A DNA stretch of 62,822 nt, counting the filler, from Stramenopiles sp. TOSAG23-2 (taxonomy: Eukaryota), in the NCBI GenBank assembly GCA_900128395.1. It is 7 parts of 7 records of this genome, joined end to end, with 100 filler letters (N's around TTAATTAATTAA, not from the genome) between each part and the next. Parts side by side here need not be neighbours in the genome. Positions count along the whole stretch, not along the records: positions 8,999 to 17,895 come from LT650150.1; 6 more parts are not named here. The stretch is one strand, 5' to 3'. Of this stretch, positions 4,991 through 32,524 are shown one piece after another. The notes under the pieces were generated by a model. It was not told the DNA's origin. It did no database searches and saw nothing but the letters and a program-made list of their open reading frames with translations. A program made the position numbers and the translations under genes. Position 1 is the stretch's first letter. The number at the start of each line of letters is the position of its first letter.

Positions 4991-6316
4991 TCAAGACAAT
5001 TGAGGGAATATTGGCTTTTCCTCTCCCTTTACTCCTGGTAATACTCCGCCTGCTTTTTTATTTCGGAGACATAAATTTTTCTTATTCAATAATTTTCTTG
5101 CTGCTCTTTTTTCATCATCAATTCGTCGAAGTACACCATTGATCCATGCTGTAAACTTTATACGTTTATAATATCTAGCACTCTCTGCAACATCACGTTT
5201 CATTTTGTTTTTTTGAAAAACATTTGCACCATGCCGTAACAACATTTTGCCACACTCAAGACTACCATGGATACCACACGTATTTAAAGGTGTATTCCCA
5301 CTTCGATCTTCTAATTCTATTTCCAATTTTCTATCCAATAAAAACTGAAGGCATTGTATTCGACGTTTCATAATATTAACATGCGTATCAGCAACACTGC
5401 ATACAACATGCAAGGCGGACATCTTGTTTTTATCAACAAAATTAATGTTTTGAGATGGTCGCAAAAGTGCAGCAACACACATTGGATGTGCGTTATATGC
5501 AGCATTCATTAGCGCAGTTCGACCTTCTGCATCAATTGCATCTAGTGGGGCATTGTTTCCCATTAAATATTCAACGATATGTACAAATCCAAATCGTGCA
5601 GCTAAGATAATTGGTGACCCATATTCATGACCAGCTTTTATATCAGCATTGTATTCTTCCGTTAATAATATTACTGATTCCATATTTCCACGACGACAAG
5701 CGGCTTGAAGCGCTGTGTATCCACCATCATCTAACGCATTTACTTGAACCGTTTGACTATTTAGTATATGTTTTATTGTATCTCTATCATTCCGTTCAGC
5801 TGCAAAAGTTAACGCATTGACATTGTCAACTGCATTCGCAACTTTAGCAGATTTCTGTTCAAAATCTTTTTGCAATGCTGTCATTTCCTTTATCGTATTT
5901 TCAAGCTCATTTTCTAAATTAGCTTTTGCTTCTTCTAATTCTTTTACAGTTGATAATGCATTTTCTTTCATAGCATTTGCAAATTTTGTATCTGCTTCTG
6001 CCTTATCTTTATTTTTCGTAGCCTCAGATGCTTCATTCAATGCTTCATCTCTTTCATTTGTCAAAGTTTCTACTTGTTCTTCTAATGCTTCTTTTTCATT
6101 TTCTAAATTATCTTGTTCATTTTCTAAATCATTAAATTGTCGTTGCAATTCCATTTTTTCATGTTTTTCTTTCTCTAATGCTTTTGATAATTCAACAATT
6201 TTATCCCTTGCCTTTGCCGCTTGGGCTTGCATACGATTGTTAATTTGTTCTTGAGACATGGAGCTTCCACCACTACCAGGTTTTTTTTTCGATCCAAATG
6301 ATTTAAATAGTGACAT
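4991..6316 (-). CDS. Coiled-coil plus ankyrin-repeat protein
   Basis: 441 aa; E/K-rich heptad N-half; ankyrin motifs GYTALQAAC, GSPIILAA, GRTALMNAA, MSALHVVC, GNTPLNTC. Confidence 0.85.
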   Translation of the reverse strand: MSLFKSFGSKKKPGSGGSSMSQEQINNRMQAQAAKARDKIVELSKALEKEKHEKMELQRQFNDLENEQDNLENEKEALEEQVETLTNERDEALNEASEATKNKDKAEADTKFANAMKENALSTVKELEEAKANLENELENTIKEMTALQKDFEQKSAKVANAVDNVNALTFAAERNDRDTIKHILNSQTVQVNALDDGGYTALQAACRRGNMESVILLTEEYNADIKAGHEYGSPIILAARFGFVHIVEYLMGNNAPLDAIDAEGRTALMNAAYNAHPMCVAALLRPSQNINFVDKNKMSALHVVCSVADTHVNIMKRRIQCLQFLLDRKLEIELEDRSGNTPLNTCGIHGSLECGKMLLRHGANVFQKNKMKRDVAESARYYKRIKFTAWINGVLRRIDDEKRAARKLLNKKNLCLRNKKAGGVLPGVKGEEKPIFPQLS

Positions 6317-9559: not shown

Positions 9560-12447
9560 ATGTCAAGATTATTATTAGAAGAAAATGTAGAAGAAAATAA
9601 AAAATGGGAAATTGATGCTAGTGCAATTGAAATTCTTGGATATATCGGACGAGGTGCATTTGCAGATGTACATAAAGGTACTTTATATGGAATGGATGTT
9701 GCAATTAAAAAACTTCATGCTCATACGAACGAAAAAGAGCGTGAACAAGCAAAATCATTATTACAGAATGAATTCAAAACGTTAAGTTTATGTCGACATC
9801 AAAATGTTGTACAAATATTAAATATTTGTTTCGAGCCACCTATGCTTATATTGGCATTTGCAGAAAAAGGAAATTTAAGAAACCTACTCGAACATGAACC
9901 AAACATGTCCAAAGAAAAACGCTGTCAACTTGCATGTGGCATATGTAATGGAATGGCAATGCTGCATAGTCGTAACATACTACATTTAGATCTAAAACCT
10001 GAAAATATTTTAATTAGCAAAGAGAATATACCATGGATATCAGATTTTGGATTGTCAAAAATTAAAACAATGTCTGCCGGGTCAACAAAAGGAGAGCGAG
10101 GGACAATACAATATAAAGCACCAGAACTTTTTAAACCACCGCATATGGGTGGACCGGTATATTTAAAAGCAGCTGATGTTTATAGTTTTGGAGTATTGAG
10201 TTGGGAATTATTTTCTGGTGAAAAAGCATTTTTAAACAAGCCGGAAACTGAGATCATGGCGATTCACATGGGAGCGTGGTTTGTCAAAGATTCTCACCCA
10301 GAACGTCCACCGATAGATGCAATAATAAGTCTAGAAGATACCGAAAAACAATTCATTATAGATTGTTGGGCTCATAAACCAGCGGATAGGCCAACATTTG
10401 AGAACTTGAGAAAATTATTGGATAAATGTATTGCTTCCTTACAAGAAAAAAACAACATTATCAACGAACCTGGTGCTTGGGATTATTTTATTTCACATGC
10501 TCAAAAAGATGGTGCTGCATTAGCTGAAGGGATTTGGTCACATATGAAATATGTAGAAAAAAAAACCTCTTGGTTAGATGTAAAAATGACTGAACGTGAC
10601 GAAGCAGCAATGAAGGAAGGTATACAAAATTGTAATGTAGTTTTGGTTATAGTAAGCGAATTGTATTTTAAGAGCGATTTTTGTATGAAAGAGTTACTCT
10701 GGGCTGCCCAATATAAAAAAGAAATAATAGTAGTAATAGATGTGAAATTGAAGAATGATATTGGGCGCTTATTAAAGAAATGTCCTGAAAATTTACGTAA
10801 TATTGGTAAAATTAATTTTATTGATTTAAATCGTGGGGATATCGATTATTGGGAAGTTGGCATGAATAAAATTATAAAAGCGCAAACACGCATATTAGAA
10901 ATACAACTGACTGAAGTAGACAAAAAAAAAGAGCACCTAGCTCAGCATAAACAAAAAGAAGATGATGAAGCTCGACGCCGTTCTGAAGTGGAGCGTAAGC
11001 GGCAGCAAGATACAAAAAAAGAGGAAATTAAACGTAAACGTGAAGAGGCGGTCAAACATAGACGACTGCAACAACAAGAAAAACCAACGGCGCAACAAGG
11101 ATGGGTAGATGTTCCATCTGGAATAGATGATAATAATATGTTTAAAAAGAATGAAAAAATACAGTCGTCAAAAAGTAAACAGACAAAATTGAAAGGGAAA
11201 GATAAAAAAGAAGATGGACTTGTACAGGTTGAACGTGATCATAATGAAATGGAAAACAAGCTTGTGGGAGGCAAGCAAGAAGTGGAAAGTGGAGTAGATA
11301 CGAAGAAAAGTGATGTATATATTAAATGGGAAAAAGAATTTGATGGGAAGACGATTGTGGATTTGAGTAATAAGAAACTCACGAATGAGGATGCATTAGC
11401 TATTGGTGAATTGTTAAAAACAAACAATACATTAACGAGATTGCACCTACGTAATAATAATATTACTGATGTACAAAGTATTGGTGAAGGATTAAAAACA
11501 AACAATACATTAACGTACTTGTACCTAGATAATAATAATATTACTGATGTACAAAGTATTGGTGAAGTATTAAAAGCAAACAATACATTGACATACTTGA
11601 ACCTAGATAATAATAATATTACTGATGTACAAAGTATTGGTGAATTGTTGAAAACAAACAATACATTAGAGACATTGTACCTGCATAATAATAATATTAC
11701 TGATGTACAAAGTATTGGTGAAGTATTAAAAACAAACAATACATTAACGATATTGTACCTAGGTAATAATAATATTACTGATGTACAAAGTATTGGTGAA
11801 GGATTAAAAACAAACAAGACATTAGAGGAATTGCACCTATATAGTAATAATATTACTGATGATGGTGGAATACAAAGTATTATTGATGCATTAAAAACAA
11901 ACAATACATTAAAGACATTGTCCCTACATAATAATCAACTTAGTTTACTGATGTACAAAGTATTGGTGAAGGATTAAAAACAAACAATACATTAACGTAT
12001 TTGAACCTAGATAATAATAATATTACTGATGTACACAGTATTGGTGAAGGATTAAAAACAAATAACACATTGACATTCTTGAACCTAAATAATAATAATA
12101 TTACTGATGTACAAAGTATTGGTGAATTTTTAAAAACAAACAATACATTAAAGATATTGTGGCTAAATAATAATATTATTACTGATGTACAAAGTATTGG
12201 TGAAGGATTAAAAACAAACAATACATTAACAACATTGCACCTATATGATAATAATATTACTGATGATGGTGGAATACAAAGTATTATTGATGTATTAAAA
12301 ACAAACAATACATTAAATGAATTGTACCTATGGAATAATCAACTTAGTGATAATATGAAATCACAATTAAATGCTATAGAACAATATAAAAAAGATGGAT
12401 CAAACGGGTATCAACAAGTGGAAGGAATGGATATAATCACATGGTAA
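9560..12447 (+). CDS. TKL protein kinase-TIR-coiled-coil-LRR protein; frame break at ~11945 (ORF track pieces 9560..11977 and 12001..12447)
   Basis: Kinase motifs GRGAFADV, VAIK, HLDLKPEN, DFG, GTIQYKAPE, DVYSFG, CW..RPTF; TIR_2-type WDYFISHAQKD...WLD...GIQNCNVVLVIVSELYFKSDFCMKEL; 12 RI-like LRRs IGExLKTNNTLxxLxLxxNNITDVQS. Confidence 0.88.
11402..12346 (+). repeat. Coding tandem array of 78-bp LRR units (12 units; two are 87-bp DDGG variants)
   Basis: Unit starts at 11402, 11480, 11558, 11636, 11714, 11792, 11879, 11962, 12040, 12118, 12196, 12283. Confidence 0.95.
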
Positions 12448-12638
12448 TTTATATATTTTTATATATTTATATACTACCAACTACAACACCCTATATATGT
12501 GTTATCATGAAAATATCTTTTTTCTTCTTCTTCGTCGGGTCTTTTGTGATTATAAAAAACAACTAAAACATGATATATAATATAATACAAGATGATGTGG
12601 CATATACATAGAAAACGTATAATAAATTAAATATTTAT

Positions 12639-12669
<31 letters not shown>

Positions 12670-12714
12670 TCGATCTACCTCAAATATACATATTATTTTT
12701 TTAAAAATAAAAAC

Positions 12715-14217
12715 ATGAGTGCAATGCTGGCGAAAAAAACCATGACGGAAGGTACGAATGAAATACCACATGCTGATTATGGTGGTGATCTTCTGGCTGG
12801 TGATGAGGTAAAAATAATTGGACTAACCTCAGAGACAGGACGTAAACTGAATGGTTGTACAGGCGTTATATGGTCACTCAACGACCGTCCAAATGATGGA
12901 ACATTCAACCCAACACTGGCATGCCGTCCTGATGGCAAATACCAAGTTCGGGTCGTGATTGACGATTCTTATCAACATAATGGACAACCTGGAACACATA
13001 TGAATCAGATTAAAACGAAAACTTACATTATGAAACGAAAGAATCTGGATCCTACAAATGTGTCTGTAGCTTCCATCAACCGTATGGAAGGTGGAAAAGC
13101 AGCTTTGAAAAAACAAAAAATGCGTGCGGGTACAACGGCAGAAATTGAGGCTGAGTTACCGGTAGATCTCAGAGGATTGTTTCCTGCAATACTGCATGGA
13201 GACCATGTTAAGCTTAGAAAGATCCTAGCGTACCTCAAGAAGACTCGCTCTTGTAATGATGTTGCAGATCACAATCTTGACGCTGCAGGAAACACTTCGA
13301 TATTTGGAGCTATTGAACATCATCATGTTGGAATTCTAAAAGTACTCATCGAGTACGGTGCAGATGTGAATCGACCCAACATGATGTCTTTTGTGCAGCG
13401 TTTAAAATTGACTCCGTTGATTATGGCACTTATGGTGATTGATATTGAGCATAAAATGGGCAATCGTGGAAAAGAATTATCAGAACGTATGGAAACTATT
13501 GTAAATTTACTTCTCGATGCAGGTGCAAATCCGTCTCATCCAAGTGGAAGAGGAACACCTTTGGTATTAGCATCTCATATCCCTGGTCAGCATGAAATGC
13601 GTCTTCGTTTGATCAAGCGACTTTTAGATGCTGGAGCAGATATAAACGAATTATATGTACCAGAAGGTGGCATGGGAAACACAACTTTATTGGCACAAGT
13701 CACTACCCTGAATACGGAGTTATATGCAACAGAGGAAGTTGTAGAAGTAGTTAAATTTCTTTTAAAAAACGGAGCAGATCCTGGCCAAATAATCAAGTCT
13801 AGTCCGTACGAGAAATGTACGGTTATCCAAATAATCGCTTCAATGAAACTGCCTGAAATATTGGAATGTATCCTTTCTTTTCCTAAAGGGCGTGCTGCTG
13901 TTGATATACGTCGTAGAGATTGCAGTCAACCAATACCTGGTCATAATAGAGGCGACAAGGAGACGTGTCTTGGGATGATGGTTATGGGCCATGATATTAC
14001 CAAGTATAAGTTAACAAGAAAATGTATTGTTATTTTGTTGAAATATGGTGCTGATCCTTCGCTTGAAGATGAAAATGGAATTTCTGCAAATAAATGGCTC
14101 AATTCTAGTCAAGCACATAAGGAACTTGGTAAATTGATTACAAAATCAAAGGATCAGGAGGATCCATTGACGTTTTGGGAGATGGATCCGGACGTCCAAA
14201 AATTTATAGAAGGATAG
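12715..14217 (+). CDS. Ankyrin-repeat protein with a small N-terminal beta (SH3-like) module
   Basis: 500 aa; GNTSIFGAI..LIEYGADVN, TPLIMAL..LLDAGANP, GTPLVLA..LLDAGADIN, LLKNGADP, LLKYGADPS; N-terminal VKIIGL.S..G.KLNG.TG.I motif. Confidence 0.8.
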   Translation: MSAMLAKKTMTEGTNEIPHADYGGDLLAGDEVKIIGLTSETGRKLNGCTGVIWSLNDRPNDGTFNPTLACRPDGKYQVRVVIDDSYQHNGQPGTHMNQIKTKTYIMKRKNLDPTNVSVASINRMEGGKAALKKQKMRAGTTAEIEAELPVDLRGLFPAILHGDHVKLRKILAYLKKTRSCNDVADHNLDAAGNTSIFGAIEHHHVGILKVLIEYGADVNRPNMMSFVQRLKLTPLIMALMVIDIEHKMGNRGKELSERMETIVNLLLDAGANPSHPSGRGTPLVLASHIPGQHEMRLRLIKRLLDAGADINELYVPEGGMGNTTLLAQVTTLNTELYATEEVVEVVKFLLKNGADPGQIIKSSPYEKCTVIQIIASMKLPEILECILSFPKGRAAVDIRRRDCSQPIPGHNRGDKETCLGMMVMGHDITKYKLTRKCIVILLKYGADPSLEDENGISANKWLNSSQAHKELGKLITKSKDQEDPLTFWEMDPDVQKFIEG

Positions 14218-14682: not shown

Positions 14683-15648
14683 ATGAATATGATAAGAAAT
14701 ACGATCAAAATGAACAAAATGCTTCTTGCAAAACGTTGTTTGCATACAACTACAGCAACATCTGCAAAAGCAAGGATGACATTTAGGTATGGGAAAAGGG
14801 AACAAATTAATAAAGAATTAGGTTTATTATCCTCATCCAACAACAGCAACAACAACAACAATACAGAAACAAATAGTAATAGTTCAACAGAAAACATATT
14901 AGAATCTACAGCAAGTGCTGCAGTGTCATCACCAAATTCTCGTGGTAATCGTTTAAGAGAACGCACGTATACGGATGTAGCCACTTCCACAATGAGGAAA
15001 GTAATAGCAAAACGTTTAACAGAATCAAAAGCTATGATACCACATTATTATTCACGTATTGATTGCAAGTTAGATGCATTATTGGACTATAGGAAAACTT
15101 TAAAGGAAAATGGTATTAATGTATCGGTAAACGATATGGTTATTCGCGCTGCTGCATTGGCATTGAAAGATGTTCCACAAGCAAATGCACAATGGCAAGA
15201 TGGTGCTGGTGTTGTTAAAAATAATAGTGTTGATATCTCCGTTGCCGTTGCAACACCTGGTGGTTTAATAACACCAATAGTTAAAGATTGTGATTTAATT
15301 GGTATGCGAGATATTAATGCAAATGTTAGTGAACTTGCTGGAAGAGCTAGAGAAGGAAAATTGCAACCGGAAGAATATACAGGTGGTTCATTTACCATTT
15401 CAAATTTAGGTATGTTTGGTATTAAAGAATTTACTGCTGTAATTAATCCACCACAAGCATGTATATTAGCAGTTGGTGGTGGACGTAATGTACCACATCC
15501 AACTACTAGTGGCAGCTTGGAAAAGAAAACAGATATGACCGTCAATTTATCATCTGATCGAAGAGTTGTAAATGAAACAATTTCTGCACAATATTTATCT
15601 GCATTTCAACGATATATTGAAACACCAATGTTATTAGCAAATGTATAA
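14683..15648 (+). CDS. Mitochondrial 2-oxoacid dehydrogenase E2/E3-binding-protein-like core domain, with no lipoyl domain and the catalytic His lost
   Basis: MRKVIAKRLTESK..IPHYY, SVNDMVIRA, DISVAVATPGGLITPI, GGSFTISNLGMFGI..FTAVINPPQ; SSDRRVVN where active E2 has SCDHRVVDG; basic presequence-like N-terminus. Confidence 0.85.
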   Translation: MNMIRNTIKMNKMLLAKRCLHTTTATSAKARMTFRYGKREQINKELGLLSSSNNSNNNNNTETNSNSSTENILESTASAAVSSPNSRGNRLRERTYTDVATSTMRKVIAKRLTESKAMIPHYYSRIDCKLDALLDYRKTLKENGINVSVNDMVIRAAALALKDVPQANAQWQDGAGVVKNNSVDISVAVATPGGLITPIVKDCDLIGMRDINANVSELAGRAREGKLQPEEYTGGSFTISNLGMFGIKEFTAVINPPQACILAVGGGRNVPHPTTSGSLEKKTDMTVNLSSDRRVVNETISAQYLSAFQRYIETPMLLANV

Positions 15649-15958: not shown

Positions 15959-17187
15959 ATGGCATCATTGAACACACCTCCTGCAAAACGACAACGGACG
16001 ACATTACAACCTGCAACGATTGAAGCGTTAAAAGAAAAACATGCAGAACCTATTAACATTGGTATATTAGTTTTACCAGCTGGAATTGAATCAACATGTG
16101 GTATATTGACAAATATACTTGAATATTTAGATATTAAAACATTATGTAATGTAAAACGATCTTCTTTGATACAACAATTTAGGAAAGCATATGGATCAGA
16201 CGATTTTGAACGTGTACGTGATGCAGCATTACAAATGGTATATGATAGAAGAAGTATCAATGAGATGATACAAACACATTCAGCGAGAAGACTTTATTTA
16301 TTAATTGAAAGATATAAAAGAGAGTTTCCACGTGCTGTAGAAAAGCATTTAGATGTGATGATTTTGAACGTGTACGTGATGAAGCATTGAGTATTGATTA
16401 TGAAGGTAGAAGAAGTATAAATGAGATGAGACTTTCACATCAAGCGAGAAGACTTTATTTATTAATTGAAAGATATAAAAGAGAGTTTCCACGTGCTATG
16501 ATCTTCAGGGATGCAATACCAACACCTATAATATGTGCATGTGATGAAGGCCGTATGGATGATGTAGAATTATTTATGAATCTTCATCCATTTCACAAGT
16601 ATATTACTAATCGTGATGTGAATGGCTACAGAGATGAGATGACATTGAAAGATTACGTGAATCAANNACCTATCGTATGTGCATGTGAACATGGACGTAT
16701 GGATGATGTAGAATTATTTATGAATCTTCATCCTTTTCACAAGTATATTACTAATCGTGATGTGAATGGCTACAGAGATGAGATGACATTGAAAGATATG
16801 ATGAGTCAAGTCGGTACAAATAGATATGGTGGTGATCGTTCACCTTTAATGGCAGCTGCAAAGTACGAACATTTCCAACTAGTTAAATATTTAATTGAAC
16901 AAGGTGAAGCTGATCCTAATATTGCAAATAGTGATGGAGAGAATGCATTACATTATGCAGCATGTTTTAGCAGAACGAATACGGAGTTGATTGAACTATT
17001 ATTAAATCACATGACAATTGATAGTATTAATAAGATGGCACCCGATGATGGAAACACTCCGTTAGACGATTGTTATGATGCCAATGATAGTCCAATTCGC
17101 CAAGAAATCATTGCACTTTTACGTTCAAAAGGTGGAATTGCAAATAAATATGATGAAAATGGTAATGAAATAGAGATACGAAGATGA
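15959..17187 (+). CDS. F-box-like N-terminus plus ankyrin-repeat protein, broken by internal duplications/frameshift (collapsed paralogs or pseudogene)
   Basis: NLS-like PPAKRQR; LP...ILTNILEYLDIKTLCNV F-box-like; ankyrin SPLMAAA..LIEQGEADPN, ENALHYAA, GNTPLD; two internally duplicated blocks, one separated by nn. Confidence 0.65.
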
Positions 17188-29372: not shown

Positions 29373-31141
29373 ATGTTACATATGATGAATACGAAAATAT
29401 TACATATAAAAGTGATATTGTTTGTAGTATTGCAATGTGTATTTATGTCTGCTGTAAATAGTGAGTATCCAATTTGTAAAGTTGGTGAAGCTCTTCCGAG
29501 TGGAGCTATACTTACATCTGGTCCTGCATCACAATGTAGTGGTCTATCTAAAATAACAACAGCAGCAGACTGTAAATTAGCAGCTAAATATAATAGTAAG
29601 AATAATATTGATAAAAATGGAGGATATGGAGGCGGAGGGAGTTGGCCGAGTAACCCACCTGGATGTGTTTATGATAGTAGTATTAATAAATATTATTGGA
29701 ATGACTACACAAAATCAACAACAAAATGTGGTAATATTTTGAAATGTATATGCAAAACAAAAACATGTATCAACTGTCCTTCCGGTACATATCAAGACGA
29801 AACAGGTTCTACTACGTGTAAAACCTGTGCGTCTGGGACGTACAATACCGAACAAGGACAAACTACTAAATCTAGTTGCAAAACATGTGAACCTGGACAT
29901 TCATGTACAAGCGGGAACGAGCAAATATGTTTGTCCGGTACATATCAAGACGAAACAGGTTCTAGTACATGTAAAACCTGTCCAACTGGAAAAGTATCTC
30001 CAAAAGGCTCAACAACATGTTACAATTTACAAAATATGTTACAAAACGTACAATCATTAAGTACACAACAAGGTGGTATCATCAAAGCTGTTGCATTATC
30101 CAATGCAAAATCCAACGAAGTGAAACAAAAAGCAAATGGTTTAATAGCAAAATTATCATTAAATTGGGCAACACAAGATGTAATTAACGAAGCACAAATA
30201 TTACGTGATCAATTATCAAAACTACCAGATTACAATGTTACACATCATTGCGAACAAGAAAAAGAACGATTAGCATATGGTGTATTACGAACTGGTGTTA
30301 TTGTACCACCCGATGCAGAAATTGATAATAAATATTGTTTAAATGAAAATCGTAATCGTTTAATAAGTTCATTTTGTAATTTTCGTCCACGATTTATTAA
30401 ATTATTAAAAGATAAATTAAATCCAGTATTACCATCGTTTCCGAAATATACAGGACAATATCAAAAAGACTTGGATCTGTTTTGTACTGGTTATGCTCAT
30501 ATTGATTTAAATCCTCCAGATACAGTTATTAATTTAGCTGTTATGAATATGCTCATATTGATTTAAATCCTCGAGATACAGTTATTAATTTAGCTGTTAT
30601 GACTCCATGGGATATACCAAAAAATATACTTTTTTTACTTGGTTCACGTAAACAAGGACGTTATGAAATTAGTGATGATTGTCCAACACCAATGTTTACA
30701 GCAAATGATATTTCATTACAAAATATTGATGGTATGGATTTATTTATAGTGAAATTAGATTCAACATCACCAAATGGATATTTAAAACGAGAATTACCAC
30801 AATGTGGTACAAGAAATAATATGGCATTTAAGCCGCATATACCAAGAACAACGATTGATGTAAAAATCTGGCTTGATCATAATTCATGTTGTCCAGATAC
30901 AAAAGATTATCAAGTATGTAAAAATATTGCTTGTGCACCTGCAGAAGATGGAAATGGTATTACAAAAGTAATTGATCCATGGACGAATCAACAAATTGGT
31001 TATAATTACAAAGTGACTGGTACAACCTTTAAAGCAACATGTGATAATAAACCAAATAGTCAACCATGTGGCAGTAGTAGTAATTCAAGACGTCGACGAT
31101 TGCTTCAAGATGAATATGGAAATAGTGGGGAGAGACTTTAA
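29373..31141 (+). CDS. Secreted Cys-rich surface protein with GCC2/GCC3 (ephrin-receptor-like) repeats; frame broken by a ~56-bp duplication at 30492-30602
   Basis: Signal peptide; CPSGTYQDETGSTTCKTC repeats; ORF 30599..31141 continues the frame after the duplication; ends RRRRLLQ...; exact start Met uncertain. Confidence 0.75.
30492..30602. repeat. Tandem ~56-bp duplication with one SNP
   Basis: tatgctcatattgatttaaatcctc(c/g)agatacagttattaatttagctgttatga twice. Confidence 0.9.
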
Positions 31142-31298
31142 AAAAATGTCTTTTAATAAAATCGAGAGACAGTGTGCCTGTGAACAAAGGGAGGACGTCG
31201 ACGATTGCTTCAAGATGAATATGGAAATAGTGGGGAGAGACTTTAAAAAAATGTCTTTTATTAAAATCGAGAGACAGTGTGCCTGTGAACAAAGGGAG
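31089..31298. repeat. Tandem 105-bp duplication with one SNP
   Basis: gacgtcgacgattgc...gaacaaagggag twice (tttaat vs tttatt). Confidence 0.92.
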
Positions 31299-31588
31299 AG
31301 TCTTTTTATACAATATATATATATATGAGTAAGAGAACATTTTATATAATAATGCTCAATATGCCTTCGTATCCTACTATAGTAAAAAGCTCTAAATTGC
31401 ACCTCTGCAAACTACGTACGAGTCGTAATACTCTACAAGCATGAGTAGGTTTTTATCCTTCCTTTCTTAACTCGTTGAACGAGCTGGATATATTAATAAT
31501 CTACCAAAGATAAAAAGATACACACACACACAAGGAATTGAGACGCAATTCAATAGAATGAAAAAATAGAAAAAAATATAGTGAAATA

Positions 31589-31820
31589 TAGGAAAATGAA
31601 CAAATACCAAAACGGGAAGGAGAGAAAAACAAGAAAAGATGATGCAATCATTCTTTAAAAATACAATAAAGCAATCTAGATGGTACAATGTATCACAATG
31701 TAAATAGGAAAATGAACAAATACCAAAACGGGAAGGAGAGAAAAACAAGAAAAGATGATGCAATCATTCTTTAAAAATACAATAAAGCAATCTAGATGGT
31801 ACAATGTATCACAATGTAAA
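31589..31820. repeat. Tandem 116-bp duplication covering the DnaJ gene start
   Basis: taggaaaatgaacaaatacc...tcacaatgtaaa twice. Confidence 0.9.
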
Positions 31821-32438
31821 ACAATGAGATGGATGAATACTACTACTACAACAACAAATAGAAATTTACTTAAAGCATATCGTGTTTTGAATGTCACTTC
31901 TGATGCTACTCAAGATCAAATTAAATTAGCATATCTGAAAAAAGTAAAAGCAACACATCCAGATCAAAACCCAGATTCTGAAACAGCGGCAGATGATTTT
32001 ATACAAATTAAAAATGCATATTTAACGCTTCAAGGTTTTGAAACGAACGATGAATTAAAAGTCGAGAAAAGTTTATTGACGCAAATAAAAGAAGCACAAG
32101 CTAGATCAGATACAAACTTTGGACTTGATTTACTGAGTGATTGTGTTAATGATGGCAAAAAATTAAATGCAACTGAAACGGAAGCATTATGTAAATTATT
32201 ATCATATTCAATTGATGATTGTTTATCATTTTACGAAGAATCTAAAGTTTTTATTAATAAAGAAGAGGAATCGTTAGGTTGGAATAATATTTTAAGAAGG
32301 ATTCGCTCTGAAAAACAAGAGACATCTGAAACAATGAATGAGTTATTGCAAATTCTTGATAAGATGGATAAATTAGGAATTGCACATGACTTGGCATTGC
32401 TGGAAAGCCAAATTTTTACTTTTTTCCCACTTCAGTGA
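31755..32438 (+). CDS. Mitochondrion-targeted J-domain protein with helical C-terminus
   Basis: AYRVLNV...QIKLAYLKKVKATHPDQNPD...FIQIKNAYLTL (HPD motif); presequence-like N-terminus. Confidence 0.88.
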   Translation: MMQSFFKNTIKQSRWYNVSQCKTMRWMNTTTTTTNRNLLKAYRVLNVTSDATQDQIKLAYLKKVKATHPDQNPDSETAADDFIQIKNAYLTLQGFETNDELKVEKSLLTQIKEAQARSDTNFGLDLLSDCVNDGKKLNATETEALCKLLSYSIDDCLSFYEESKVFINKEEESLGWNNILRRIRSEKQETSETMNELLQILDKMDKLGIAHDLALLESQIFTFFPLQ

Positions 32439-32524
32439 TGATGTGTGGTTATCACACCTTGGCATTGCTGGAAAGCCAAATTTTTACTTTTTTCCCACTT
32501 CAGTGATGATGTGGTTATCACACC
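32390..32524. repeat. Tandem ~68-bp duplication differing by a TG indel
   Basis: cttggcattgctggaaagcc...gatgat(gt)gtggttatcacac twice. Confidence 0.9.

Follow-up and report, generated by a model that had tools for sequence, protein, structure and literature searches.

A portable leucine-rich repeat cassette with hypervariable codons in a stramenopile close to MAST-4

Among the 62,822 nt analyzed here from Stramenopiles sp. TOSAG23-2 (assembly GCA_900128395.1; the whole stretch, seven joined parts of the genome, is called the window), a gene at 9560-12447, on a part taken from LT650150.1, encodes a protein kinase domain, a TIR domain and a tandem array of leucine-rich repeat (LRR) units. The units share a nearly invariant DNA framework and differ mainly at a few codons, and related arrays occur in other metagenome loci and in database proteins. 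We consider it likely that these genes form a large, fast-turnover (birth-and-death) family of probably intracellular LRR sensors that lack a nucleotide-binding oligomerization domain (NOD) and evolve by unit exchange combined with diversifying selection.

According to this explanation, the array would be the sensor domain of one family member in a marine stramenopile close to MAST-4. It would belong to a portable 3' cassette, consisting of an N-terminal cap, a variable count of 26-residue units of the ribonuclease inhibitor-like (RI-like) type, a 29-residue unit, a cap unit and a conserved tail, that is fused to differing N-terminal signaling or effector domains, here a kinase and a TIR domain. 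All members would draw on a single pool of units that are duplicated, lost and exchanged within and between genes. Such exchange would keep the framework near-identical even at synonymous sites, and diversifying selection would retain amino-acid changes at four concave beta-strand positions and one helix position. The outcome would be many binding surfaces on one scaffold. By analogy, a ligand bound at the concave face may switch on the N-terminal effector, be it a TIR, kinase, caspase or helicase domain.

Repeat units, variable codons and fold

Tandem Repeats Finder (TRF) reported a tandem repeat of period 78 at 11401-12265 (10.9 copies, score 1134), as well as a higher-order period of 404 across 11401-12348. 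An 18-nt framework word, searched with up to three mismatches, gave 13 matches against 0.98 expected; none of 100 shuffles reached 13, and 12 of the 13 matches fall inside the array. The 12 units, within 11402-12360, start at 11402, 11480, 11558, 11636, 11714, 11792, 11879, 11962, 12040, 12118, 12196 and 12283 and follow the consensus IGExLKTNNTLxxLxLxxNNITDVQS. They are of three types: eight standard units of 78 nt, two of 87 nt that read ITDDGGIQS (units 6 and 11) and two cap units with NNQLS (units 7 and 12). Nucleotide identity among the eight standard units is 88.0% overall and 96.5% without five variable codons, i.e., x2, x3, x5 and x7 of LxxLxLxxN and a fifth hypervariable codon off the beta-strand, in the helix, where GE-x-L carries L, G, V, F or A. 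The first-pass annotation of this DNA had described a near-identical framework over 12 units, synonymous sites included, and the TRF result, the word scan and the 96.5% identity bear this out. That description needs amendment in that there are three unit types, unit 7 measures 83 nt and units 8-12 lie in another frame.

The list of x residues in that annotation, running from TR-H-RN to NE-Y-WN, was reproduced exactly, unit by unit. All codons it had given for x5 (CAC, TAC, AAC and TCC) and x7 (CGT, GAT, CAT, GGT, TAT and AAT) are present, with TGG additional at both positions, and x8 is Asn in most window units. Conservation of the third codon position, also claimed, is clear at x5, x7 and x8 and looser at x2 and x3. 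Tyr, Trp and His account for 16 of the 36 residues at x3, x5 and x7 in the window. The four framework leucines are encoded by TTA, TTA, TTG and CTA, every one fixed at its own position. As these synonymous codons differ from one another and are nevertheless position-fixed, the frozen synonymous sites reflect common descent or homogenization, and codon bias was rejected as the cause of the frozen framework.

Within the window, the Nei-Gojobori method gave a proportion of nonsynonymous differences (pN) of 0.49-0.52 at the x codons, compared with a proportion of synonymous differences (pS) of 0.09-0.13 and a pN of 0.016-0.07 in the framework. A pooled set of 34 units was then drawn from the window and from eight metagenome contigs. 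In this set, codon 15 (x5) is NNC in 31 units and codon 17 (x7) is NNT in 30; codons 15, 17 and 18 occur as 8, 13 and 7 codon types, respectively, each specifying a different residue, with zero synonymous variants. Nucleotide diversity reaches 0.57 and 0.55 at the first and second positions of the x codons (0.56 jointly) versus 0.086 at framework third positions. Parsimony on a FastTree phylogeny of the pooled units assigned 114.8 nonsynonymous and 7.2 synonymous events to six variable codons, compared with 16 and 10 for eleven framework codons (Fisher p = 4.6e-5; binomial synonymous deficit at the x codons, p = 2.4e-5). Synonymous events per codon are similar, at 1.2 for x codons and 0.9 for the framework; thus, the x codons receive no more mutation than the framework does, and it is the retention of amino-acid changes that is raised there. 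These lines of evidence, which consist of counts, diversity and parsimony, support diversifying selection at the variable codons and place variation at the x positions above the framework yardstick, as the first-pass annotation had expected.

Per-site entropy gave a consistent picture. It was computed over 102 ungapped units (100 distinct) from 42 of 45 sequences, comprising 43 proteins with at least 59% identity and the window's two open reading frames (ORFs). Across the 100 distinct units, entropy peaks at x3, x5 and x7 (3.4-3.6 bits), followed by x2 and x8 (2.0-2.2 bits); it is at most 1.7 bits elsewhere, with the helix position next (1.67 bits). The earlier remark on an enrichment of aromatic residues and histidine extends to the family: in the 100 family units, 73 of the 300 residues at x3, x5 and x7 are Tyr, Trp or His, compared with 6.6% in the N-terminal regions of these proteins (p = 1.6e-22), corresponding to 2.6- to 4.8-fold enrichment. 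Moreover, all 13 in-array variant places found in contigs of four public runs sit in codons 4, 12, 13, 15 and 17.

RI-like LRR units are 28-29 residues long, and the x residues of LRRs form a concave binding face. Every unit of the array contains TLxxLxLxxNNI, in agreement with the RI-like motif LxxLxLxxN/CxL, and Pfam LRR_4, LRR_6, LRR_1 and LRR_8 match the array. Units 8-12 and the tail were modeled with AlphaFold2 from a 25-sequence alignment (predicted local distance difference test score, pLDDT, 94.7). The model alternates helices with short strands on x3-L-x5, and the tail forms a helix (residues 117-132) and a final strand (residues 144-146). Foldseek placed it beside the NOD2 LRR domain (root-mean-square deviation 1.7 A over 120 columns), NLRP1 and leiomodin/tropomodulin, and sequence matches in the PDB comprised RI-like proteins, NOD2, ribonuclease inhibitor and NLRPs. 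These features place the array in the RI-like class, as a variant whose units are unusually short, at 26 residues except for the penultimate unit of 29. The variable positions x2, x3, x5 and x7 lie on the beta-strand.

A shared cassette and the probable exchange of its units

Metagenome loci are denoted below by L-numbers and database proteins by P-numbers. Among the 118 loci listed, at least nine carry related arrays with 81-93% DNA identity; the DNA scan used a 17-nt AT-rich word that matched mostly by chance, and the family is under-sampled in it. A protein search with units 8-12 and the tail retrieved 134 proteins at E <= 1e-10 among 7344 candidates. About 43 proteins (at least 59% identity) share the framework, with 3 to approximately 10 units per protein. 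When the cap unit and tail were used as query, about 19 of the best 150 matches carried the tail and the rest were generic LRR proteins, so this search provides no family count. Contigs from four public runs were placed on region 10900-12700 in large numbers (177, 808, 636 and 363). In run X1, individual framework contigs have depths of 118-2075 compared with 22.3 for the single-copy flank; the framework is therefore not single-copy, although such depths do not equal copy numbers. With the framework present in at least nine other loci, some 43 proteins and hundreds of short contigs, the array is not the fixed single-copy element that would have contradicted a recognition repertoire as first proposed.

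The cassette has a constant order, i.e., an N-terminal cap (KWEKEFDGK...EDALA), n units, an 87-nt unit, a cap unit and the tail (DNMKSQLNAI.QYK.DGSNGYQQV.GM), and sits behind unrelated N-terminal parts. These include a protein with two hydrophobic segments (L030 / P0122), caspase C14 (L077 / P0126), a kinase (P0135), ankyrin repeats (P0130, P0165, P0210 and others), an SF2 helicase (P0132), TIR plus helicase (P0191), a Schlafen-like helicase (P0220) and an XK-related membrane protein (P0143). Among the relatives, the cassette is most often combined with ankyrin repeats. In the window, the N-terminal cap KWEKEFDGKTIVDLSNKKLTNEDALA occupies 11301-11401; DNA similarity to L077 begins at 11301, high contig depth starts in the 11266-11326 bin, and this motif also precedes the units in P0125, P0135 and P0191. 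At the other end, the tail DNA is nearly identical in L030, L077, L093, L106 and L035.

Standard units of the same array have a framework distance of 0.044, and those of different arrays 0.043 (permutation p = 0.56). A mosaic unit was also found: the x codons of window unit 7 (cap type) and of L030 unit 3986 (standard type) differ at 0 of 15 nt, and their frameworks differ at 7 of 48 nt. In another instance, L041 and L093 share an identical 66-nt unit, placed in different contexts. The equal distances and the mosaic unit, together with the nonsynonymous excess, support the earlier proposal of repeat shuffling or gene conversion plus diversifying selection, and we infer that unit exchange is an ongoing process. 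Expression is indicated by one metatranscriptome contig of a relative (160 nt, 6 differences) and by framework contigs.

Several members are broken. L093:19-96 has an in-frame TAA at hypervariable codon x3, L037:61-180 has an indel in the tail, the tail of P0397 is frameshifted, and L109:208-354 holds two orphan units between stops. These broken members support birth and death within the family, and the window copy, described below, is broken as well. A lone cap unit with tail was also seen behind an AT-rich stretch, possibly an intron, at L035:3850-4035.

Two further observations concern the reach of the cassette. LRR proteins of intracellular bacteria (P0129, P0136, P0164, P0172, P0184 and P0196, from Neptunochlamydia, Rickettsia endosymbionts, Rickettsiaceae and Legionella) match the cassette LRRs at 36-50% identity, as near as most eukaryotic matches, which hints at host-to-symbiont transfer of this LRR class. 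In P0121, encoded on another contig, a Biotin_lipoyl domain runs straight into high-conservation LRR units. The window itself contains a 2-oxoacid dehydrogenase acyltransferase (E2) ORF at 14683-15648, 2.2 kb 3' of the LRR gene, with a presequence-like start and a catalytic domain and without a lipoyl domain. P0121 may represent insertion of the cassette into an E2 gene or a fusion of gene models.

The window copy and rival explanations

All features of the window gene lie on the plus strand. ORF A (9560-11977; 805 aa) encodes, according to the ORF list and the Pfam scan, a kinase, a TIR domain, a charged linker and LRR units 1-7. The kinase domain is TKL-like and spans aa 25-286 (9632-10417; Pfam PK_Tyr_Ser-Thr, 7.7e-47; Pkinase, 1.4e-43). 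Its VAIK, HLD and DFG motifs can all be read in the translation, and the kinase is apparently active. The TIR domain follows at aa 310-432 (10487-10855; Pfam TIR_2, 2.4e-10) and contains the motif SELYFKSDFCMKEL, the Glu of which we take to be the NADase catalytic residue. A PDB sequence search with the TIR region returned nothing at E <= 0.01 and weak TIR alignments at E 0.1-0.8, and SELYFKSDFCMKEL aligned weakly (E 0.1-0.5) on the corresponding motif of the bacterial TIRs TcpB, PdTIR and Cat1. The TIR domain appears to be a shuffled module itself, with copies at 63-72% identity in P0024, P0012 and P0191, proteins of TIR-TPR, CBM9-DUF5916-TIR and TIR-helicase-LRR architecture from marine metagenomes. 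A Lys/Glu/Arg-rich linker, seen in the translation at approximately 10880-11300 without a Pfam match, is probably a coiled coil.

Pfam found neither NACHT nor NB-ARC in ORF A. Among 18 proteins scanned, the 15 cassette-bearing relatives also had neither domain, NACHT being confined to distant LRR matches at 30-43% identity. Judged from these domain scans, the window gene is thus not a NOD-like receptor (NLR) or other STAND receptor. ORF A has no N-terminal hydrophobic segment, its sole hydrophobic peak lying inside the kinase fold; its product is therefore probably cytosolic. Exact look-up of both window ORFs in the protein collection yielded no identical entry, and a Protein Atlas search returned generic kinase-LRR clusters only.

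In the array, LRR units 1-5 (78 nt each) occupy 11402-11791, followed by unit 6 (87 nt, ITDDGGIQS type) at 11792-11878, a type that is penultimate in relatives. Unit 7 (11879-11944) is of the cap type and ends in NNQLS; in every relative examined, such a unit is succeeded by the tail and no further units. Here, at the out-of-register junction 11944|11945 (11941-11949), CAACTTAGT is joined to TTACTGATG, making unit 7 83 nt long and shifting the frame. The sequence runs from CAACTTAGT into TTACTGATGTACAAAGT with 5 nt more than an in-register join would have, and the break creates the stop of ORF A at 11975-11977. As assembled, the encoded protein therefore ends after seven units. The other frame, open from 11944, holds units 8-10 (78 nt each, 11962-12195), unit 11 (87 nt, ITDDGGIQS type, 12196-12282), cap unit 12 (NNQLS, 12283-12348) and the conserved tail DNMKSQLNAIEQYKKDGSNGYQQVEGMDIITW with its stop codon (12349-12447), the part modeled as a helix and a final strand. 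The 3' flank can be aligned with paralogues over 12448-12498, weakly given its AT-richness, and Megablast to L030 and L093 reaches 12497/12498. Unit comparison pairs units 2, 3, 4, 6 and 7 with units 8, 9, 10, 11 and 12; the second block thus stands behind a complete array. An intron was rejected as the cause of the frame break, because the GT...AG candidates measure 18 nt, a multiple of three that leaves the frame unrestored, and 29 nt, which leaves an 18-residue unit.

Several points weigh against the family explanation proposed above, and those at the locus itself lead to a rival account of its status. The window copy is frame-broken, and its 12-unit array may be a pseudogene, formed when a second array was illegitimately joined behind a complete one, or an assembly chimera in a high-copy repeat. 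That the locus as assembled is no working gene for one of these reasons is quite conceivable, if somewhat short of probable. A cap sequence joined 5 nt off register to the middle of a unit fits this account, as does the observation that none of the contigs listed from the four runs for region 10900-12700 bridges 11944|11945, run contigs breaking at 11346, the start of the repeat. The 'skip' joints 11421>12307 and 11549>12269 are single low-depth contigs, probably derived from shorter paralogues. An internal NNQLS cap followed by further high-conservation units occurs in no other family protein scanned, L093, L037 and P0397 are likewise broken, and four near-exact two-copy tandem duplications elsewhere in the window, which break an ORF, may be assembly artefacts. 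However, a chimera formed through shared k-mers would be expected to join in register, and the junction has no shared word. P0121 and L041 also have an array behind another LRR domain, in frame, and blocks 2-7 and 8-12 differ chiefly at the x codons, which suits two once-selected arrays better than neutral decay after duplication. Either status of the locus is compatible with the family-level explanation, and the family result is untouched by it.

At the level of the family, the remaining points concern selection, exchange and function. Within the x codons, Nei-Gojobori pN/pS is just 1.3-1.5, a low value that arises because multi-step codon paths inflate pS; the strong contrast depends on framework synonymous sites as the yardstick. 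The tree is weak, being built from recombining sequences of 66 nt, so the event counts are approximate, and the pooled units stem from metagenome contigs of unspecified species composition. The assignment of the family to one genome derives from depth in a single run, perhaps unevenly amplified. Furthermore, a very recent amplification burst would equalize distances within and between arrays without ongoing exchange. Such a burst with relaxed constraint, in which exposed strand residues of young copies drift without positive selection or exchange, draws on these equal, star-like framework distances and on the general knowledge that exposed x positions are the least constrained in any LRR. Drift cannot outpace the neutral rate, however, and diversity at the first two x-codon positions is about 6.5 times that at framework third positions; the synonymous fraction expected among the 115 nonsynonymous and 7 synonymous events is 0.19, synonymous variants are missing at codons 15, 17 and 18, and the bias toward Tyr, Trp and His points to directional choice. 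We therefore hold the burst to be quite unlikely. Even less credible is that targeted hypermutation, through adenine mutagenesis as in diversity-generating retroelements or through a deaminase hotspot, writes the codon pattern. Adenine mutagenesis of AAC/AAT templates yields NNC/NNT-type codons, in line with the fixed third base of codon 15 (NNC) and codons 17 and 18 (NNT), and one hypervariable codon is a stop (the TAA of L093). Nevertheless, framework adenines at synonymous sites (the third bases of TTA, AAA, ACA and CTA) are invariant (diversity at most 0.21), synonymous events per codon are alike in both classes, and we know of no template repeat. With these invariant adenines and with no reverse transcriptase among the 25 window ORFs scanned, a mechanism like that of diversity-generating retroelements was rejected. 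Lastly, the genes could encode ordinary scaffolding or cytoskeletal LRR adaptors without a non-self role, their variability reflecting many endogenous partners. Structural and sequence neighbors do extend to axonemal LRR proteins (DRC5, LRRC34, dynein light chain 1) and to actin-capping ones (leiomodin/tropomodulin), and an infection-related expression signal is unavailable. Housekeeping LRR adaptors, however, are conserved and single-copy, whereas the present genes combine a nonsynonymous excess and pseudogene turnover with TIR, caspase, kinase and helicase fusions, making this role improbable. Domains of this set recur in immune and death signaling (PMC4986451). For the diversifying sensor family that we favor, a recognition function of the product is plausible, and its immune role and intracellular location are inferred.

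Known systems, host and gene neighborhood

The closest described process is that of the fungal het-d/het-e genes, and by analogy the window family would work in the same way. The WD repeats of het-d/het-e are reported to show concerted evolution across members, with units exchanged within and between genes, pseudogenes, and four surface residues per repeat under diversifying selection (PMC1805685). A survey of fungal repeats with high internal conservation (HIC), a term reserved for repeats that exceed 85% identity over at least 100 aa, describes a like pattern for ANK and TPR repeats and found no LRRs (PMC4986451). Mean amino-acid identity of the eight standard units here is 82.6% (range 73-92%), slightly below that threshold, and rises to 96.4% without the five hypervariable positions. 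Two features of HIC repeats are seen, namely positive selection at few interaction-surface positions per repeat (x2, x3, x5 and x7, from counts and parsimony) and concerted evolution with variable repeat number (equal distances, the mosaic unit and 3 to about 10 units). Fungal HIC genes (het-d/het-e, NWD, ANK and TPR) thus resemble the window family in near-identical repeats, unit exchange, few selected surface positions, variable unit number, pseudogenes and free combination of N-terminal effectors. Unlike them, the window family has LRRs as its repeat, no NACHT or NB-ARC between effector and repeats, a different effector set and a stramenopile host for which no process like repeat-induced point mutation (RIP) is known.

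Animal NLRs (NOD2, NLRP1 and NLRP3) and ribonuclease inhibitor have LRRs of the same class and fold and share a probably intracellular setting; the window gene differs in lacking NACHT, in having 26-residue rather than alternating 28/29-residue units and in the extreme DNA identity between units. Within the stramenopiles, the LRR-ROCO and NB-ARC-TPR candidate receptor genes of Ectocarpus offer a parallel in concave-face selection, birth and death, and non-coding orphan LRRs (PMC3341825; see also PMC11378527). In the account of Ectocarpus ROCO LRRs, positive selection acts on the concave face, and each LRR is a 72-nt exon shuffled singly through introns and attached to a ROC-COR GTPase (PMC3341825). 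In contrast, the 78-nt units of the window are contiguous in one ORF, RI-like and linked to kinase-TIR, caspase, ankyrin or helicase parts, and ORF A has no Pfam match to ROC or COR. Agnathan variable lymphocyte receptors (VLRs) likewise combine a conserved scaffold with a hypervariable concave LRR face and are built from cassettes. VLRs are, however, extracellular and assembled somatically from flanking donor cassettes, for which the orphan units of L109 and L035 are so far the only lead in the window family. Finally, a kinase plus TIR without a membrane segment was reported in a comparative study as unique to choanoflagellates in its data set (PMC6040629). The same 'Kinase TIR' architecture occurs in ORF A (Pkinase aa 25-286, TIR_2 aa 310-432, no transmembrane segment), a likeness of architecture only, and is combined there with a C-terminal LRR cassette in a stramenopile host.

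Near-identical repeats with a few hypervariable surface positions are a signature of fungal non-self-recognition genes and brown-algal candidate receptors. Here the signature occurs on an LRR scaffold that is NOD-less and wired directly to TIR, kinase, caspase and helicase domains. This implies that this design of recognition repertoire would have arisen repeatedly and that tiny marine predators may carry sizeable families of innate immune-like sensors. The family also supplies concrete genes for asking how grazers distinguish food from viral infection or digestion-resistant bacteria. A bolder idea, which we regard as a long shot, is that MAST-4-like flagellates possess a NOD-less intracellular receptor system in which a single portable LRR cassette keeps recombining across dozens to hundreds of genes whose effector heads differ (TIR, kinase, caspase and helicase), orphan non-coding units serving as donors. 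If so, cells or clonal lines would differ in the order and number of their units, and the repertoire would be driven by gene conversion, with a logic nearer to VLRs or trypanosome-style cassette switching than to ordinary multigene families. A full-text literature search turned up no publication that connects such LRR families to MAST-4 or heterotrophic flagellates, and the main text of a comparative MAST-4 paper lacks the words leucine, kinase and immun- (PMC8237690).

The host was placed by protein comparison. An AP-2 alpha subunit encoded in the window has 99% identity to a metagenome protein, 80-82% to two more, 64% to a Stramenopile-MAST_4 protein and 37-46% to oomycete and diatom proteins, which identifies the host, at the level of sequence similarity, as a marine stramenopile near MAST-4; the Protein Atlas yielded no informative taxon for this subunit. 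The window is eukaryotic in character, with approximately 32% GC and few introns, and the stretch is partly present in 20 runs from 13 studies, every labeled one being marine. This lineage consists of uncultured heterotrophic flagellates that dominate bacterivory in the surface ocean, MAST-4-like flagellates being among the commonest oceanic grazers of bacteria.

The window gave no Rfam or tRNA hits. The LRR gene is flanked by three ankyrin-repeat genes, at 4991-6316 (minus strand), 12715-14217 (plus strand) and 16387-17187 (plus strand). The start of one of these carries two imperfect two-copy repeats, of 161 nt and 144 nt, at 16180-16797. The four two-copy tandem duplications mentioned above are located at 30492-30602, 31089-31298, 31588-31820 and 32390-32524, with copies of 56, 105, 116 and 68 nt that are identical at 54/56, 104/105, 116/116 and 60/68 positions, respectively. 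All lie within 2 kb of an Ephrin_rec_like gene, itself fragmented into several ORFs; when one copy of each is removed in silico, ORFs of 405 aa and 202 aa merge into one of 578 aa. These duplications are either very recent events or assembly artefacts and call for caution with the whole window. Elsewhere, a 70-nt tandem repeat of 3.7 copies with 96% matches is present at 60154-60415.

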